From a virus (taxonomy: Duplodnaviria; Heunggongvirae; Uroviricota; Caudoviricetes): a stretch of DNA of 11,069 nucleotides. The position numbers and the translations under genes were made by a program. Positions within the stretch are counted from its first letter, which is position 1, and each line of letters begins with the position of its first letter. Under the pieces are notes generated by a model, which saw only the letters and a program-made list of their open reading frames with translations, did not search any database and was not told the DNA's origin. Of this stretch, positions 382-11,069 are shown piece by piece. Location of the stretch: the IMG/VR virus record IMGVR_UViG_2711768070_000020; one strand, 5' to 3'.

Positions 382-681
382 ATGAAACTTAAATATCCTG
401 GCTTAACTGACAGCGGCAAAACTCGCACTAAATTCATGCGCGGGGATATTTACCGCGACCAGTACGGCGGCACGGTAATGATTAAGGGCGTGGAGGAACG
501 GCGCGTAACCTACCATCGTGAAGGCTACGAATATGATTGCGTGATGCCTGTTTATCAGTTCCGGCGTGATTTTTCTCTGGTACAGGCAGCGCCCCGCAGT
601 AAACCAACCAGCAGGGAGAAAGCACGCGCCAATATTCAGGAAATAAAAAAGATGCTTAACGTATTCAGGGGTAAAAAATGA
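382..681 (+). CDS. Hypothetical protein (99 aa), translationally coupled to the downstream replication gene
   Basis: ORF 382..681. Its TGA (679-681) overlaps the ATG (678-680) of the next gene in an ATGA arrangement. GGGGA lies upstream of the ATG. No family recognised. Confidence 0.55.
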   Translation: MKLKYPGLTDSGKTRTKFMRGDIYRDQYGGTVMIKGVEERRVTYHREGYEYDCVMPVYQFRRDFSLVQAAPRSKPTSREKARANIQEIKKMLNVFRGKK

Positions 682-2810
682 AACTGGCACCGAACGTAAA
701 AAAACAGCCACGCGGAATAAAACACAAAGACACAGAGGTGATTATTTTCGCGGGTAGTGATGCGTGGGCACATGCAAAACAGTGGCAGGAGCAGGACGGC
801 CCCGCATCCGGCGATAATGTGCCTCCTGTGTGGCTTGGGGAGCAGCAGTTATCAGAACTGGATAAGCTGCAAATTGTGCCGGAAGGCAGAAAATCCGTGC
901 GCATATTCAGGGCCGGACATCTTGCACCAGTAATGATCAAGGCGATTGGTCAAAAGCTGGCGGCGGCTGGTGTACAGGATGCAAATTTTTATCCTGAGGG
1001 TATGCACGGTCAGAAGGTGGAGAACTGGCGCGAATATCTGGCCCGTGAGCGGCAGAATCTTTCTGATGGTCTGGTTATTGAGTTTCCGGTAAAGAAAAAA
1101 GATACCGGAAGCCATAGCGATGACGAATTAAAGCCACGCGTTGAAAGTCGCGCCGATGGTGTTTTCTGGGTAACGCCCAAAGTGGATAAGCAGTCAGGCG
1201 AAATTATCCGGCCTGAGACGTGGTTATGTTCTCCGCTTGAACTACTGGGAACGGGGACGATCGGTAAAGAGCATTACCGCGTGATGCGCTGGAAAAAAAC
1301 CGCAAACCATGAAGTCATCACAATGGCGATCCCGTGTGGTGGTATCGGCGACCGTGACGGCTGGCGGTTACTTAAAGATCACGGGCTGAACGTGACAACC
1401 AACGGCAAATACAGGGCAATCCTGGCGGACTGGATGCAGTTAAGCGGAAGCCATGAGGAATGGCAGTTAAGCACAACAACGGGCTGGCATTTTGGCGCGT
1501 ACATCATGCCGGACGGTTCGATCATTGGTGAATCTGAAAAACCGATCCTGTTTACCGGAAAAAGCGCCGCGATTAACGGTTATTCCGTGGCGGGCACGGC
1601 GGATGGCTGGCGCGACAGCGTGGCGCGGCTGGCTGGCGGTAATGCCTCAATGATACTGGGTGTGGCAACGTCACTGGCAGCGCCTTTAATTGGCCTTGTG
1701 GGTGCTGACGGCTTCGGGGTGCATCTTTTCGAACAGTCATCGGCAGGTAAGACCACCACGCAGAACATCGCATCAAGTTTATGGGGAGAGCCGGACGCGC
1801 AGCGGCTGACCTGGTACGGCACGGCGTTAGGTATTGCCAATGAGGCCGAGGCCCATAATGACGGGCTTTTACCACTGGATGAGATAGGCCAGGCCGGAAA
1901 TGCGCGGGAAGTGTCAACGTCTGCTTATACGCTGTTTAACGGTTCAGGGAAATTGCAGGGGGCGAAGGATGGCGGCAACAGGGAGATCAAACACTGGCGA
2001 ACGGTGGCAATCAGCACCGGAGAAATGGACGTTGAGACATTCCTCAAAAGTGAGGGGATAAAAGTTAAGGCGGGGCAGCTTGTCCGACTGCTTAACGTTC
2101 CGATGGAAAAAGCCACGAAATTTCACGAATACAGCAACGGTAAGGAACATGCTGACGCGTTAAAGGATGCCTGGACAGCAAATCACGGGGCGGCGGGTCG
2201 TGAGTGGGTTAAATGGCTGGCAGGCCACCAGCAGGAGGCAAAGGACACGGTAAGGGAATGCCGCGAACGGTGGCGCAACCTGATACCGGAGAGTTACGGC
2301 GAGCAGGTCCACCGCGTGGGTGAACGTTTCGCCATACTGGAGGCCGCGCTTGTGCTTTCCGGTCATGTAACTGGCTGGGTCGTGCAGGAATGCCGCGACG
2401 CGATACAGCATAACTTTAATGCCTGGGTGAAGGAGTTCGGCACGGGTAACAGGGAATTTAAACAGATGGTTGAACAGGCTGAGGCGTTTTTGTCGTCGTT
2501 TGGGTTTAGCCGCTACCTTCCGTACCCCAATACAGATGAGCGTGATTTACCGATTAAAGAGCTTGCCGGATACAGAAAAGGGAGCATTCGCAACGAAGAT
2601 GACGAGATGCGCTATTACACGTTCCCGCACGTGTTTGAGAGTGAGATAGCGAAGGGATTTAATCCGGCGCATTTTGCGCGTGCCCTGGATGCTGCCGGAA
2701 TGCTGGAGAAGGGAAGCGATCGCCGATACAAAAAAAAGGCGCTGGGCAAGATTGGGGGTAAGCAGCATGTTTTTTACGTGCTGATGTTCCAGCCTGATGA
2801 TGAAGATTAA
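678..2810 (+). CDS. Primase/helicase-type replication initiator (Pri/Rep-like, 710 aa) with a P-loop-like motif
   Basis: Long ORF with AGGGGT 6 nt upstream of the ATG. Contains a P-loop-like motif SAGKTT (nt ~1737-1760). An iteron array follows immediately, which is the characteristic rep-ori arrangement of PICI/satellite replicons. Exact family not verifiable without a search. Confidence 0.7.
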   Translation: MKLAPNVKKQPRGIKHKDTEVIIFAGSDAWAHAKQWQEQDGPASGDNVPPVWLGEQQLSELDKLQIVPEGRKSVRIFRAGHLAPVMIKAIGQKLAAAGVQDANFYPEGMHGQKVENWREYLARERQNLSDGLVIEFPVKKKDTGSHSDDELKPRVESRADGVFWVTPKVDKQSGEIIRPETWLCSPLELLGTGTIGKEHYRVMRWKKTANHEVITMAIPCGGIGDRDGWRLLKDHGLNVTTNGKYRAILADWMQLSGSHEEWQLSTTTGWHFGAYIMPDGSIIGESEKPILFTGKSAAINGYSVAGTADGWRDSVARLAGGNASMILGVATSLAAPLIGLVGADGFGVHLFEQSSAGKTTTQNIASSLWGEPDAQRLTWYGTALGIANEAEAHNDGLLPLDEIGQAGNAREVSTSAYTLFNGSGKLQGAKDGGNREIKHWRTVAISTGEMDVETFLKSEGIKVKAGQLVRLLNVPMEKATKFHEYSNGKEHADALKDAWTANHGAAGREWVKWLAGHQQEAKDTVRECRERWRNLIPESYGEQVHRVGERFAILEAALVLSGHVTGWVVQECRDAIQHNFNAWVKEFGTGNREFKQMVEQAEAFLSSFGFSRYLPYPNTDERDLPIKELAGYRKGSIRNEDDEMRYYTFPHVFESEIAKGFNPAHFARALDAAGMLEKGSDRRYKKKALGKIGGKQHVFYVLMFQPDDED

Positions 2811-2832
2811 TCCCCTGTGTGAGGAAAAAAAT

Positions 2833-3148
2833 TGCGGGTTATGCGGGTTATCCTGTGTATAAGTGTATTAAGTGTATGAATATAAAGGAAATCAATAACC
2901 CGCACGTAACCCGCAAAAGGGCATTTATAACCCGCAAAAGCACGATTATAACCCGCAGGCGAATAACTGAAGTAACACCGGACAGTCATGCGTAACCCGC
3001 AGAAAAAACCCCGTTTGCGGGTTATTTTGAGCGTTTTGCGGGTTACGTGGTGAGCAAATAATAAACAGGGTGTTTTGCAACATGCTGATATAAAAGGGTA
3101 AAAAATGGTTAGCACGCTAAGATAACCCAATAACCCGCATAACCCGCA
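2833..3148. repeat. Iteron array / putative origin of replication: 11 copies of 9-mer TAACCCGCA (both orientations), followed by an AT tract
   Basis: TGCGGGTTA at 2833-2841, 2842-2850, 3016-3024, 3037-3045; TAACCCGCA at 2896-2904, 2907-2915, 2928-2936, 2949-2957, 2993-3001, 3131-3139, 3140-3148; partial TAACCCA at 3123-3129. (TA)n tract tatatatatataaa at ~3156-3170. Non-coding on + strand. Confidence 0.8.
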
Positions 3149-3182
3149 CATGTTTCTATATATATATAAATTGAGGTGGCAA

Positions 3183-3434
3183 ATGACCAGAACACGCAGA
3201 GACAGAACAGAGCCGAAATATAAAGCGTTAGATATAACAGAGCTGGCCTTAAAGGTGGCAATCAGAACGATAGACCGACACGTAGGGGAAGGATACGCGA
3301 AGGAACATCCCGACCTGATAAGCGCATTCATGACCACAGCAGCGGCAAACTTTGCCACGTTGACAGAACGGGAGATTGCCGAAGCGGAACAGGTAACAAC
3401 CATCAACGTTAAAACCGGAGAGTTGAAATCATGA
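3183..3434 (+). CDS. Hypothetical protein (83 aa)
   Basis: ORF 3150..3434 with ATG at 3183 preceded by GAGGTGG (MTRTRRDR...). Stop overlaps the next start (ATGA at 3431-3434). No family recognised. Confidence 0.5.
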   Translation: MTRTRRDRTEPKYKALDITELALKVAIRTIDRHVGEGYAKEHPDLISAFMTTAAANFATLTEREIAEAEQVTTINVKTGELKS

Positions 3435-3736
3435 GCGAACCAAAATTTGGTGAAAAACTTTACAAGCACAACGGACGGATCACGATTCAGCAAATAAGCG
3501 CAGCTACACCAGGCTGGTGGGTTGAAACAGACGAAGGATCCTCACCCGTGGCATCATGGGCGCTTTGTGTGCTTAGTTACCCTGACCGCGATGTGTATCA
3601 GGATATTCTGCCTGTGATATCCACTGACAAAGGCATGAAACCCGTAGACATCAAAAACATGGGTTTTCAGTGCGTAATGCTCACTGAAAAAATGATGGAA
3701 GAGATGAAAAAGAATAACGCCGGATCGCTTCACTGA
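3431..3736 (+). CDS. Hypothetical protein (101 aa)
   Basis: ORF 3431..3736, coupled to the upstream ORF by an ATGA overlap. No family recognised. Confidence 0.5.
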   Translation: MSEPKFGEKLYKHNGRITIQQISAATPGWWVETDEGSSPVASWALCVLSYPDRDVYQDILPVISTDKGMKPVDIKNMGFQCVMLTEKMMEEMKKNNAGSLH

Positions 3737-3745
3737 GGTGGCAAT

Positions 3746-4156
3746 ATGACAGCACAAATTGCAGCTTACGGGCGGCTGGTGGACGACCCGCAGGTAAAAC
3801 AGACCAGCAAGGGTACACCGATGACGCTGGCGCGTATGGCGGTATCGCTGCCATGCAGCCAGGCACAGGATGGACAGGCGACGTTATGGCTATCGGTCAT
3901 CGCATTTGGTAAGCAGGCCGACTTCCTGGCTAAACATCAAAAAGGCGACGTTGCCAGCGTATCCGGCACGATGCAGGTCAGCCAGTGGACCGGACAGAAC
4001 GGGGAAACGCGGCAGGGTTATCAGGTTATTGCAGACAGCGTAATCAGTGCCCGTGCGGCACGTCCTGGTGGGAGCCGACGCAAGACCACAGGCACACAGG
4101 GTAATCAGCCACCAGCGGGAGGCGATGACCCTTACGGTGATGATATTCCGTTCTGA
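3746..4156 (+). CDS. ssb: Single-stranded DNA-binding protein (short SSB, 136 aa) with canonical C-terminal acidic tip ...DDIPF
   Basis: GAGGTGG RBS 6 nt upstream of the ATG. N-terminal OB-fold-like pattern (GRLVDDPQV..., W..VIAFGKQADFLAKHQKGDVASVSGTMQVSQWTGQNGE) parallels bacterial SSB. Gly/Pro/Gln-rich linker and terminal PYGDDIPF match the SSB C-terminal protein-interaction tail. Confidence 0.75.
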   Translation: MTAQIAAYGRLVDDPQVKQTSKGTPMTLARMAVSLPCSQAQDGQATLWLSVIAFGKQADFLAKHQKGDVASVSGTMQVSQWTGQNGETRQGYQVIADSVISARAARPGGSRRKTTGTQGNQPPAGGDDPYGDDIPF

Positions 4157-4168
4157 GGGGTGGGGACG

Positions 4169-4441
4169 ATGGTACATGACCGCATAGCGGAAGAACTGGA
4201 GGCGAAAGGCTTTTACCGGAGAGCGTCGGCGCGATGGGGTGAAGTCATGCAACTGGTGGAGACAGACAAGGAACGGCATCAGGTTACGATGCGACGGCTG
4301 GAATGTTCCAGGAAGGCACAGAGGCCACCGGAGCCGCCGGATAATTACGGAGACCTGAAAAAGGCGGTCGATCGCACTTATGCCGAAATGGGTATGGATG
4401 GTGCTGGTGATGAAATATGGCGAAATTACCAGGACAGATAA
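4169..4441 (+). CDS. Small putative transcriptional regulator, tentatively PerC-like (90 aa; alternative GTG start at 4160)
   Basis: ORF 4160..4441 with ATG at 4169. The N-terminal segment IAEELEAKGFYRRASARWGEVM resembles what I recall of the PerC/Pch family of small activators found on enterobacterial islands. Assignment is from memory only. Confidence 0.4.
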   Translation: MVHDRIAEELEAKGFYRRASARWGEVMQLVETDKERHQVTMRRLECSRKAQRPPEPPDNYGDLKKAVDRTYAEMGMDGAGDEIWRNYQDR

Positions 4442-4447
4442 TCACAC

Positions 4448-4470
4448 AGCCGGAGCAATCCGGCTTTTTG
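4448..4470 (+). terminator. Rho-independent terminator after the small-gene cluster
   Basis: Stem AGCCGGA (4448-4454), loop GCAA, stem TCCGGCT (4459-4465), followed by TTTTT (4465-4469), directly after the stop at 4441. Confidence 0.6.
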
Positions 4471-4590
4471 TCATGTTTTGTAAATTATTTGTTCGTGGTT
4501 GTTCCACGTTGTTCGCTGACCGGATCGGCATATTTTACCCGAACTGAATCATGATTATTCTCGCCCGTGGTGCCAGGACGCTGGGGCCAC

Positions 4591-4638
4591 TTTCCCGCCT
4601 GTTAATGTGCTCGCCAATATTCATTACCAGGCGGGAAA
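4591..4638. promoter_or_regulatory. Perfect 11-bp inverted repeat TTTCCCGCCTG-N26-CAGGCGGGAAA upstream of the capsid operon; candidate operator/activator site or 5' leader structure
   Basis: Left arm 4591-4601 and right arm 4628-4638 are exact reverse complements. Located in the 287-bp intergenic region ~90 bp upstream of the capsid gene start. No U-tract follows, so it is not a typical terminator. Confidence 0.35.
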
Positions 4639-4728
4639 ACGATCGGTGCGATTGCTGATTTCCTTATGAAAAACGGTTGAGTGTTTGCCGCGTCCTGGAG
4701 TTCCTTACTTAACTTCAGGACTTTTTTT

Positions 4729-5886
4729 ATGCCGAGAATAATCGAATTACGCCAGCAGAAAACCGCCATTAAAAATCAGATGCGCGACATGCTGGAGAAC
4801 GCGGAAAAAGAAAACCGCAGCCTTAACGATGCTGAGGGCGCAAAATTTGACGAATTACGCGCTAAAGCTGAATCCCTCGATAAAGACATCTCCCGCCTTG
4901 AGGCCGTTGCTGACGAAGAGCGCAGTAAACCAGGCAAAAACAGCCAGACCACTGACCCCGCCGAACTACGTCACTACATTCTGACAGGTGAAACCCGCGC
5001 ATTGAGTACAGGCGTTCCCGCTGATGGTGGTTATACCGTTATCCCCGAACTGAACACCGAAATCATGCGAATGCTGACGGATGAATCCACCATGCGCCGC
5101 ATCTGTACCGTGAAGAAAATCAGCAGCAACGAGTTTAAGCAGCTTGTTTCCGCTGGCGGTGCGACCGTTAACCACGGTGAAGAGGGTAAGGCACGCGAAC
5201 AGACCAGCACCCCGCAGATTAACGAGGTGAGCATTAAGCTGTATCCGGTCTATGCGTACCCGCGCACCACGCAGGAAATCGTGGATTTTTCCGATGTGGA
5301 CATCCTTTCATGGCTGACGGGCGAGATTGGCGACACCTTCACGGAAACCGAAGAAAGCGATCTGGTTGTGGGCGACGGTGACAAAAAAGCAAAAGGTTTT
5401 TTATCCGTACCCCGTGCAGAGAAGAACGACAAAGAGCGTGATTTTGGTACGTTGCAGGTAATTAAACCTTCCGAATCTCTGGCGTGGACATCTGCGGACC
5501 CGCTGATCGACCTGAAATTTGCATTACGTAAAAAATACCGCAAAAACGCGGTTTGGGTGGTTAACTCCACGACGGCGGCAAAACTCCAGAAGGTGAAGAA
5601 CGCGAACGGTGATTACATCTGGCGCGACCGTTTACAGGCGGGTGATCCTGATACGTTGCTGGGCCTTCCGGTCGAATATCTGGAGTTTATGCCTGATAAC
5701 GTTATTGCCCTGGGTGACTTCAAACGCGGTTACTACATTGTTGATCACGAAACAGGTGTTCGCACCAGACCGGACAACCTCACAGAGCCGGGCTTTATCA
5801 AAATTTTCACGCAGAAATATTTAGGCGGTGGCGTGGTGGATTCGAACGCTATAAAGATTCTGGAACTGCCGCAGGACGACGATTAA
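4729..5886 (+). CDS. HK97-family major capsid protein with N-terminal coiled-coil delta (scaffold-like) domain (385 aa from ATG 4729; ORF opens at GTG 4681)
   Basis: AGGA ~9 nt upstream of ATG 4729. The charged helical N-terminus (ELRQQKTAIKNQMRDMLENAEKENRSLNDAEGAKFDELRAKAESLDKDISRLEAV) followed by a ~280-aa body is typical of HK97-type MCPs that carry their own scaffold domain. Genomic context with protease and portal supports the call. Confidence 0.85.
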   Translation: MPRIIELRQQKTAIKNQMRDMLENAEKENRSLNDAEGAKFDELRAKAESLDKDISRLEAVADEERSKPGKNSQTTDPAELRHYILTGETRALSTGVPADGGYTVIPELNTEIMRMLTDESTMRRICTVKKISSNEFKQLVSAGGATVNHGEEGKAREQTSTPQINEVSIKLYPVYAYPRTTQEIVDFSDVDILSWLTGEIGDTFTETEESDLVVGDGDKKAKGFLSVPRAEKNDKERDFGTLQVIKPSESLAWTSADPLIDLKFALRKKYRKNAVWVVNSTTAAKLQKVKNANGDYIWRDRLQAGDPDTLLGLPVEYLEFMPDNVIALGDFKRGYYIVDHETGVRTRPDNLTEPGFIKIFTQKYLGGGVVDSNAIKILELPQDDD

Positions 5887-9424: not shown

Positions 9425-11069
9425 GTACGCAGAAGACGTAAAAACGGGCAAAATTCCGGCCTGTAAACGGTTAAAACAGGCCGTTAAACGGTACTTTTCG
9501 GACCTTAAAAGTCCCCTTTACACGTTCGATAGTGAGGTTGTGGAGCGGTTTATTGCCTTTTCAAGGGTGTGCCCGCACGTAAAAGGGCCGTTGCGTGGCA
9601 GACCCATTGAGCTGGAGCCGTGGCAGCAGTTCGCCTTTGCGTGCATCCTGGGTTTTAAGGTTAAGGCCACCGGACGGCGCAAATACTCGAGCGCTTTTAT
9701 CGAAGTACCGCGAAAAAATGCGAAATCCACGACCGCCGCGATTCTGGCTGACTGGTTTCTGATTATGGAGAACGGGCAGCAGGATATTTACACCGCAGCG
9801 GTGAGCCGTGACCAGGCACGGATCGTGTTTGATGATGCGCGTCAGATGTGCCTTTTATCCCGACCGTTACGCAGGCGGGTGAATATTCAGGCCCACAAGG
9901 TGATACACCCGAAAACCAACAGCCTGTTAAAGCCGCTGGCAGCAAAAGCGGCAACCATCGAGGGGACAAACCCGAGTCTTGCCATTGTGGACGAATATCA
10001 CCTGCACCCCGATAACGGCGTTTATTCCGCGCTTGAGCTGGGGATGGGTGCACGTCCCGAAGGGCTGTTATTTGCCATTACCACATCGGGAAGTAACGTC
10101 GTTTCAGCCTGTAAGCAGCACTATGATTATTGCTGCCAGATCCTGGACGGCGAAGAGGTCAACGAATCGCTTTTTGTGCTGATTTACGAGCTGGACGATG
10201 AAAACGAGGTTGACGATCCGGCGATGTGGATAAAGGCGAATCCCAATATCGATGTTTCCGTTGATCGTGAAAAACTGGCCTCAACCATCCAGAAAGCGCG
10301 GGGTATTCCGTCGCAGTGGGTGGAGATGATGACAAAGCGGTTTAACATCTGGTGCCAGGGGGCCACCCCGTGGATGGGTAACGGGGCGTGGGCTGAGTGT
10401 GCCGGAACGTTCACAGAGGAAGATTTACACGGCCAGGAATGTTACGCGGGGCTTGATTTGTCATCCACAAGCGACATTTCCAGCGTGTGCTATGCCTTTC
10501 CGGTCGGCAAAAAAATTATGCTGCTTTCCCGTCACTATCTGCCGGAATTTCAGCTACAGAACCCCGCCAACAAGAACCGGGCCATTTATCGCCAGTGGGC
10601 TAAATCGGGCTGGTTGCGGATAACGCCGGGCGACTGCATTGATTACGACCGGATCCGCGATGACATCATGGAGGACGCGGAAAAATTTGATATCAGGCTG
10701 GTGGGCTTTGATACGTGGAACGCCACGCATCTCAGGACGCAATTACAGGGGGCAGGGTTTGAGGTTGAGCCGTTCCCGCAAACCTATCTGAGATTCAGTC
10801 CGGCGGCGAAATCGTTCGAAGTTTTTGTTAACCGCAGGGTGATAGTCCATCGTGATGATCCGGTGTTGTCGTGGTCGATGAGTAACGTCGTGATGCAGAG
10901 TGACGCGAACGCCAATATCAAGCCAAACAAGAAAAAATCACCGAACAAGATAGACCCGAGCGTGGCGGCACTGATGGCGTTTGGCACATTCCAGGCAGAG
11001 CATGAAGATTTTGCTTTTGATATAAGCGACAGCCACCGCGAAAAACTGGAAGAATTTAACGGGGTGTGA
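9408..11069 (+). CDS. terL: Terminase large subunit (Terminase_1/HK97-like, 553 aa); apparent TTG start overlapping terS by 17 nt
   Basis: Walker A-like PRKNAKSTTAA, Walker B-like IVDEYH, and a C-terminal nuclease-like region. N-terminus TTWNKYAEDVKTGKIPACKRLKQAVKRYFSDL is typical of TerL. First in-frame start is TTG at 9408 with GAGGAC 5 nt upstream. Stop TGA at 11067-11069 is the last triplet of the window. Confidence 0.9.
   Translation: MTTWNKYAEDVKTGKIPACKRLKQAVKRYFSDLKSPLYTFDSEVVERFIAFSRVCPHVKGPLRGRPIELEPWQQFAFACILGFKVKATGRRKYSSAFIEVPRKNAKSTTAAILADWFLIMENGQQDIYTAAVSRDQARIVFDDARQMCLLSRPLRRRVNIQAHKVIHPKTNSLLKPLAAKAATIEGTNPSLAIVDEYHLHPDNGVYSALELGMGARPEGLLFAITTSGSNVVSACKQHYDYCCQILDGEEVNESLFVLIYELDDENEVDDPAMWIKANPNIDVSVDREKLASTIQKARGIPSQWVEMMTKRFNIWCQGATPWMGNGAWAECAGTFTEEDLHGQECYAGLDLSSTSDISSVCYAFPVGKKIMLLSRHYLPEFQLQNPANKNRAIYRQWAKSGWLRITPGDCIDYDRIRDDIMEDAEKFDIRLVGFDTWNATHLRTQLQGAGFEVEPFPQTYLRFSPAAKSFEVFVNRRVIVHRDDPVLSWSMSNVVMQSDANANIKPNKKKSPNKIDPSVAALMAFGTFQAEHEDFAFDISDSHREKLEEFNGV

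Follow-up and report, generated by a model that had tools for sequence, protein, structure and literature searches.

The acidic C-terminal tip of E. coli SSB is the binding site for the chi subunit of Pol III, DnaG primase, PriA, RecQ and ExoI, and a linker of about 57 residues joins it to the OB fold. Many plasmids and phages carry additional SSB genes, for which SSB demand is the usual explanation. The E. coli protein (P0AGE0; PDB 1EYG and 1EQQ) is encoded at the uvrA-ssb locus. F-plasmid Ssf (PRK13732) and the phage SSBs of phrog_44, probably including gp36 of phage HK106, are extra SSBs encoded by mobile elements; they combine an OB fold with an acidic tip.

Two groups of genomic islands carry related proteins. 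The MP ('middle protein') or LP1413-type SSBs of staphylococcal SCC elements are OB-fold proteins linked to DUF927/Cch-type or COG3378 helicases, and their C-terminal extension is used for protein contacts. The MPs pair 1:1 with an A-family polymerase-like primase, are not predicted to be tetramers and have no acidic ..DDIPF tip (PMC10061031). In Gram-negative PICIs, genes for primase, SSB and DUF5906 proteins colocalise with mapped origins and have been classified as replication genes (PMC10111431). This classification is a categorical annotation only, with no structure, tip analysis or functional test. We found no functional study of a PICI SSB in the literature searched. The ssb gene is absent from the text of the cf-PICI and PICI survey papers examined, and the cf-PICI papers mutated packaging genes only.

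Here we describe an ssb gene in a stretch of 11,069 nucleotides (IMG/VR record IMGVR_UViG_2711768070_000020, Caudoviricetes), hereafter called the window. It belongs to the same gene class as the SSB genes of Gram-negative PICIs, and our synteny survey reproduces their grouping with replication genes. Like E. coli SSB, its product has the OB-fold topology, a disordered linker and a DDIPF end, whereas its gene lies on a mobile island. Unlike the SCC proteins, it has no polymerase partner gene and its tip is of the host type. We propose, with a probability of roughly 60%, that it serves as an accessory replication factor of the PICI replication module.

Results

Identification of the ssb gene

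The ssb gene occupies positions 3746-4156 of the plus strand, stop codon included, and this assignment is based on the ORF and its translation, PF00436, TIGR00621, phrog_44 and RefSeq. The ORF starts with ATG and encodes 136 residues with the C-terminal end GGDDPYGDDIPF (...DDPYGDDIPF), as the preliminary description had read it. A ribosome-binding site, GAGGTGG, is present at 3735-3741 on the same strand and shares bases with the stop codon of the preceding ORF. The N-terminus MTAQIAAYGRL is kept in ssb homologs of many genera, so the start codon is well supported. The string TGAGGTGGCAA(A/T)ATG precedes both the ORF at 3183 and ssb (3172-3185 and 3734-3748), a duplicated translation-initiation region. 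An antisense ORF of 129 aa at 3890-4279 was set aside as a presumed by-product of the G+C-rich coding strand.

The Pfam model PF00436 (SSB) matched residues 5-99 with 62.5 bits against a gathering score of 26 (E = 4e-17), which is far beyond chance. TIGR00621 gave 57.7 bits against a cut-off of 53.95, phrog_44 ('single strand DNA binding protein') matched with E = 1e-40, and all 31 of the PDB sequence matches were SSBs. In the subfamily models, the protein reached 28.2 bits with the enterobacterial chromosomal SSB model NF006533 (cut-off 260) and 25 bits with the conjugative-plasmid SSB model NF010292 (F-plasmid Ssf/PRK13732 type; cut-off 265). These scores, far under the cut-offs, rule out an orthologue of the chromosomal or F-plasmid SSB. 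By these comparisons the satellite SSB appears as a separate lineage inside the SSB family, outside the chromosomal and plasmid subfamilies. The novelty implied in the preliminary description does not hold, because RefSeq already names the same product (WP_000126693.1) 'single-stranded DNA-binding protein' and SSB is already listed among PICI replication genes in PMC10111431. The satellite ssb is thus a correct but ordinary finding at the level of annotation.

OB fold, linker and acidic tip

The OB-fold ssDNA-binding domain comprises residues 1-103 (3746-4054, plus strand), as delimited by AlphaFold2, Foldseek and alignment to E. coli SSB. AlphaFold2 was run on the monomer with an alignment of 78 diverse family members (A1). 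The model has a mean pLDDT of 87.4 and at least 95 over the OB domain (95-98 in blocks of residues 1-100). Its strands span residues 3-11, 16-19, 25-36, 44-54, 69-82 and 88-100, with a helix at 55-62, and the order of these elements is that of the SSB OB fold (strand1-strand2-strand3-helix-strand4-strand5). When the model was compared with the PDB by Foldseek, the best 50 matches were all bacterial SSB OB domains, with probability 1.0 and target TM scores of 0.58-0.83. The SSB-like OB fold suggested earlier from the sequence pattern is therefore borne out by Pfam, TIGR00621, phrog_44, AlphaFold2 and Foldseek, which all agree, and the predicted fold is an OB fold.

Alignment to E. coli SSB, which the preliminary description had called for, gave 26% identity over the OB domain. 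Residues W48, F54 and W81 of the satellite SSB align with W54, F60 and W88 of E. coli SSB (mature E. coli numbering). Thus three of the four aromatic residues that stack with ssDNA in the E. coli protein (W40, W54, F60 and W88) are kept, and C37 takes the place of W40. In A1, the conservation of W48 and F54 is 92% or higher, and W81 is also conserved in the subfamily. The E. coli residue H55, located at the tetramer interface, is replaced by L49, and strands 2 and 3 are joined by a loop that is three residues shorter than in E. coli SSB. Judged from its sequence and model, the gene product is a genuine bacterial-type SSB with predicted ssDNA binding.

Residues 104-127 (AARPGGSRRKTTGTQGNQPPAGGD; 4055-4126, plus strand) form a short linker that is predicted to be disordered from its pLDDT, column entropy and length variation. 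The pLDDT falls to 56-68 over the tail (residues 104-136), and the linker has the highest column entropy (2.75 bits) and varies in length among homologs. The satellite SSB is indeed short, as had been noted, and its shortness lies in the linker, with about 24 residues compared with about 57 in the E. coli protein; the OB domain has its full size. The linker also differs from that of E. coli SSB in starting with the basic sequence RPGGSRRK. A basic motif, S-A-R-x-x-R-P-G-G-(x)-R-R-K, is found directly after the OB fold at 4046-4078 (residues 101-111). It is conserved across the short-SSB subfamily (A102 81% and R106 87% in A1) and is without counterpart in E. coli SSB.

The acidic C-terminal tip DPYGDDIPF, read directly from the sequence, consists of residues 128-136 (4127-4153, plus strand), and its final DDIPF is identical to the last five residues of E. 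coli SSB. The last five residues have the lowest column entropy in A1 (1.38 bits); because the A1 members were picked for acidic-...-Phe tails, this low entropy and the invariance of F136 are partly circular. Two sets obtained without tail selection, namely 120 close clusters and 33 loci from other genera, give an unbiased view of tip conservation. The ...IPF tip was present in most of the 120 clusters (nearly all complete ones), and an acidic tip ending in Phe was present in 26 of the 33 loci. In many other genera the IPF ending is swapped for ..DDE[A/T/D]PF or ..DDDF, so the set of tip-binding partners may differ between genera.

In many E. coli genomes (H54-H67), nucleotide similarity to ssb stops abruptly at nt 326, which is the boundary between the OB domain and the linker. 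The homologs also fall into discrete classes of linker length, with proteins of 136, 140-141 and 146-149 residues. Together these observations indicate that the linker is mosaic while the OB domain and the tip are kept, and the pattern suggests that the linker region has been exchanged by recombination or in the manner of a cassette.

The island and its replication block

Over its whole length the window shows 99.8% identity to E. coli O157 chromosomes. In NZ_CP039834 the matching island is about 15 kb long, is bounded by an integrase and lies between the rcn genes and thiM. Its 5' part contains the integrase, an HTH (AlpA-like) regulator, Icd-like genes and a DUF4222 gene, followed by the DUF927 gene, the origin region, two small ORFs, SSB and PerC. 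The 3' part encodes an HK97-type capsid, protease, portal, head closure and connector proteins, HNH, TerS and TerL; capsid, protease and portal have Pfam matches in the window. The annotated NZ_CP039834 island contains no tail or lysis genes. The ssb gene is thus island-encoded, as proposed, in an element with head and terminase genes. Matched to the family architecture described for EcCIEDL933 (10.1101/2022.09.08.507074), the gene content identifies the host element as a probable capsid-forming PICI (cf-PICI) of the EcCIEDL933 type. Induction of EcCIEDL933 by the helper phage HK106 and its transfer on helper tails have been reported in the cf-PICI preprints. A hairpin with an 11-bp stem (GTCCTGGAGTT...AACTTCAGGAC) followed by seven T is located at 4692-4728 and abuts the capsid ATG at 4729. 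This structure resembles a terminator, stands at the very beginning of the packaging operon and could serve for regulation by antitermination.

The gene at 678-2810 (plus strand) encodes a replication initiator/helicase, Rep, of the DUF927 (Cch/SaPI-Rep-like) family (Pfam DUF927, E = 1e-48; HTH_56). Its PDB matches include 8tch, 'Pathogenicity island protein' (SaPI Rep), and 5dgk, 'Active helicase' (SCCmec Cch). No Pfam family or PDB sequence match was detected for Rep residues 1-181 (678-1220). With no Pfam-detectable primase domain in this region, priming by host DnaG via SSB is plausible. The PHROGs label of the Rep family is 'DNA primase'.

A putative replication origin was mapped from its repeats to 2833-3175. 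It contains 11 exact copies of TAACCCGCA at 2833-3148, in both orientations (0.13 expected), together with degenerate copies, and an AT-rich tract at 3150-3175. No exact copy of TAACCCGCA was found elsewhere in the window. The iteron array sits in the gap between the end of the DUF927 gene and the next ORF. This layout agrees with the published Gram-negative PICI origin, in which iteron sets flank an AT-rich segment directly behind the 3' end of the initiator gene (PMC6092414). The placement of ssb next to the origin in the preliminary description is roughly right, in that the iterons lie upstream of it; but ssb is the third gene downstream of the origin, and its start is 598 bp past the last iteron, after two small ORFs.

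The two small ORFs (3183-3434 and 3431-3736, plus strand; 83 and 101 aa) match phrog_1231 and phrog_27268, both of unknown function, and are RefSeq CDSs. They were found only in close relatives of the element (L001 and L035), with a weak match in L022. In other islands, different small ORFs overlap the ssb start. A gene for a PerC-family regulator follows 12 nt downstream of ssb at 4169-4441 (plus strand; Pfam PerC, E = 1e-43; RefSeq start). A PICI PerC homolog is reported to repress, rather than activate, the LEE pathogenicity island, whereas LEE1 fusions were unaffected by the PerC homologs of EcCIEDL933 and EcCICFT073 (PMC11773190).

The ssb gene has the same orientation as Rep, lies downstream of Rep and the origin, and is packed with the two small ORFs and perC; the successive gaps in this block of four genes are -4, 9 and 12 nt, the second small ORF being packed against ssb. 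A consensus scan located a terminator-like hairpin (4448-4465; 7-bp stem with 5 G-C pairs, then TTTTGTC) with its T-run at 4448-4472 on the plus strand, which is likely the end of the transcription unit holding ssb. No sigma-70-like promoter was found in a scan of 2700-4800, and hence none between Rep and ssb. The lack of a promoter match and the hairpin after perC suggest that ssb is co-transcribed with the replication genes, through the origin.

Distribution and synteny of ssb relatives

An ssb relative was found in 1784 of 5426 complete E. coli genomes (about a third), at up to six places per genome and almost always on the chromosome. Plasmids carry it rarely (39 of 72,556 records). Among 1.84 billion cluster representatives there were 7463 matches at E<=1e-3 and 328 at E<=1e-10, many of them proteins of 125-150 aa with an acidic ..DDxIPF-like tip. 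In 50,697 phage records, no relative of the satellite SSB exceeded 35% identity (best 35%).

Forty-one ssb loci were recovered, one genome per species and mostly from Enterobacterales; they were retrieved with a narrow alignment (A3), which biases the set towards this order. In about 25 enterobacterial loci the ssb homolog is preceded, at a distance of about 2 kb, by a DUF927 homolog, and in about 13 loci the ssb homolog has PerC downstream. One locus (L013, CACSKA010000004.1) is labelled Chryseobacterium sp. 18061 (Bacteroidota). Its island layout is the same as that of two Enterobacter loci (L011 and L012), and in all three a DUF927 homolog with 61% identity precedes ssb by about 2 kb. The L013 assembly may reflect contamination or mislabelling.

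In loci without DUF927, the upstream gene encodes either a Zn-ribbon-Toprim-D5_N-DUF5906-Pox_D5 primase-helicase or a D5_N-DUF5906-Pox_D5 helicase without Toprim. These loci include two cf-PICI-like islands (L003 and L008) and L043, a classical PICI from an O6:K2:H1 strain. One metagenomic member, with 46% identity, is located between two AlpA genes and a DnaB-type helicase. A role of ssb as a specific partner of DUF927 is ruled out, since it also follows Toprim-D5 or D5-only replicases and adjoins the DnaB-type helicase. It is not specific to cf-PICIs either, because only 4 of about 33 enterobacterial loci (L001, L003, L008 and L035) contain a capsid-terminase module and the classical PICI has ssb too.

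Thus at least three replicase architectures are found upstream of ssb relatives, with or without a capsid module, and ssb stays in place while the adjoining replicase swaps between unrelated helicase classes. From this synteny survey, ssb is a conserved accessory of satellite replication modules, independent of both the replicase class and the packaging module.

Selection on ssb and truncated copies

The dN/dS ratio over OB codons was 0.09-0.23 in 27 of 29 full-length comparisons, and dS was saturated in the other two. Where dS was unsaturated (L002 and L043), dN/dS was 0.17. The ssb gene is under strong purifying selection.

Of 33 copies, besides the 26 that are full-length with an acidic tip ending in Phe, three are full-length without the terminal Phe and four are truncated (L021, L031, L035 and L040). 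L035 is a cf-PICI of Shigella flexneri (CP182556) whose head and terminase proteins are 94-99% identical to those of the window. Its ssb (about 10001-10075) is recognisable over approximately the first 25 codons, in a reading frame that reaches a stop after 53 codons, and L035 has another allele of the DUF927 gene (53%). By these comparisons, the replication module of L035 appears to be exchanged or decaying, with the packaging module kept.

An SSB-like protein of the helper phage HK106

The HK106 genome (NC_019768) encodes gp36, a 127-aa 'hypothetical protein' (26238-26621, minus strand) whose gene adjoins that of the Erf annealing protein. No Pfam match to gp36 was found at E<=1. It matches phrog_44 (SSB) with 3e-27 and has the C-terminal end ...PVYDDSIPF, and is probably an unannotated phage SSB. 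Its identity to the satellite SSB is about 23% (hhalign probability 53%). Both proteins belong to the same PHROG, but gp36 lies in a recombination module beside Erf and not beside an origin. The idea that the lambdoid helper lacks an SSB, which would make competition moot, was rejected on the basis of this match and of the YDDSIPF end. If gp36 is SSB-like, an induced cell would hold three SSBs (host, helper and satellite) with similar tips. Competition of the satellite SSB with host or helper SSB for interaction partners, raised in the preliminary description, is therefore anatomically possible.

Discussion

We favor the view that the satellite SSB is an accessory replication factor of the PICI replication module, to which we give the probability of roughly 60% stated above. 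In this mechanism, the helper phage induces the island and Rep would open the origin. The satellite SSB would coat the strands unwound by Rep, and its tip would dock host factors that normally read the tip of host SSB. The island would gain extra SSB capacity while helper and satellite replicate together, without competing for the host pool. A role in supporting the element's own replication, as first proposed, fits the position of the gene downstream of the replicase and origin in many islands.

The satellite SSB is most likely a helpful accessory and not an essential factor. [quoted passage not shown] Because this segment replicates with host SSB, the satellite protein appears to be dispensable for initiation as such; and because four of the 33 islands in addition have truncated copies, ssb is probably not essential.

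The same truncated copies, and the fact that a related PICI does not need ssb to replicate (PMC6092414), might be read as signs of a decaying passenger, an SSB captured from a chromosome, plasmid or phage that has no current function. This is very improbable. The gene is under strong purifying selection, many genera share its start, OB residues and tip, it keeps its position despite the swapping of replicases, and about one in three complete E. coli genomes contains it. Selection and synteny together largely refute the passenger reading. Another proposal is that the main role of the tip is to draw tip-binding proteins (Pol III chi, DnaG, PriA, ExoI, RecQ or the helper Erf) off DNA coated by host or helper SSB, which would bias replication or recombination to the satellite or cut the helper yield. 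The identity of the DDIPF end with that of E. coli SSB is in line with such hijacking, as is the small SSB-like protein that HK106 encodes beside Erf. The protein also represents a separate satellite-associated lineage, distant from its best phage match and from the helper SSB. On the other hand, ssb sits in the replication block, away from known interference genes, and carriage of SSB by mobile elements is usually put down to SSB demand. Moreover, the variation of the tip between genera fits generic docking better than a tuned competitor. We consider hijacking as the main role unlikely.

A function outside the replisome was also considered, in which the SSB protects ssDNA intermediates of the satellite against host nucleases or influences a host defence that senses foreign SSBs or ssDNA metabolism. 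Activation of the DRT10 defence is reported to need an SSB-like phage protein whose tip is FDDDIPF and which is linked to ExoI/SbcB (preprint 10.64898/2026.04.29.721553); interaction with defence thus occurs for SSB-tip proteins that mobile elements encode. Another report describes defence or accessory genes as frequent in PICIs (PMC10085698). However, the locus gave no sign of defence in Pfam or PHROG searches; the neighbours of ssb are the replicase, the origin, the two small ORFs and PerC, and the gene conserved beside it in the different loci encodes a replicase and not a defence function. Because DRT10 activation needs a phage SSB-like protein, a defence-related role is retained, at low probability. 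A similarly doubtful extension of the accessory-factor model is that the satellite SSB acts as a portable replisome adaptor and competitor at the same time. Its host-identical tip and the SAR..RPGG segment would then redirect host tip-binding factors (possibly also Erf) onto satellite DNA, at the expense of a helper with its own YDDSIPF SSB.

As it stands, the significance of the gene is small; mobile elements often carry an SSB, and this protein was already correctly named. A modest point of interest is how a satellite replisome is assembled, in particular with a DUF927 Rep that has no recognisable primase domain. The three near-identical SSB tips of host, helper and satellite would offer a tractable system for studying SSB-tip competition in the conflict between satellite and helper.
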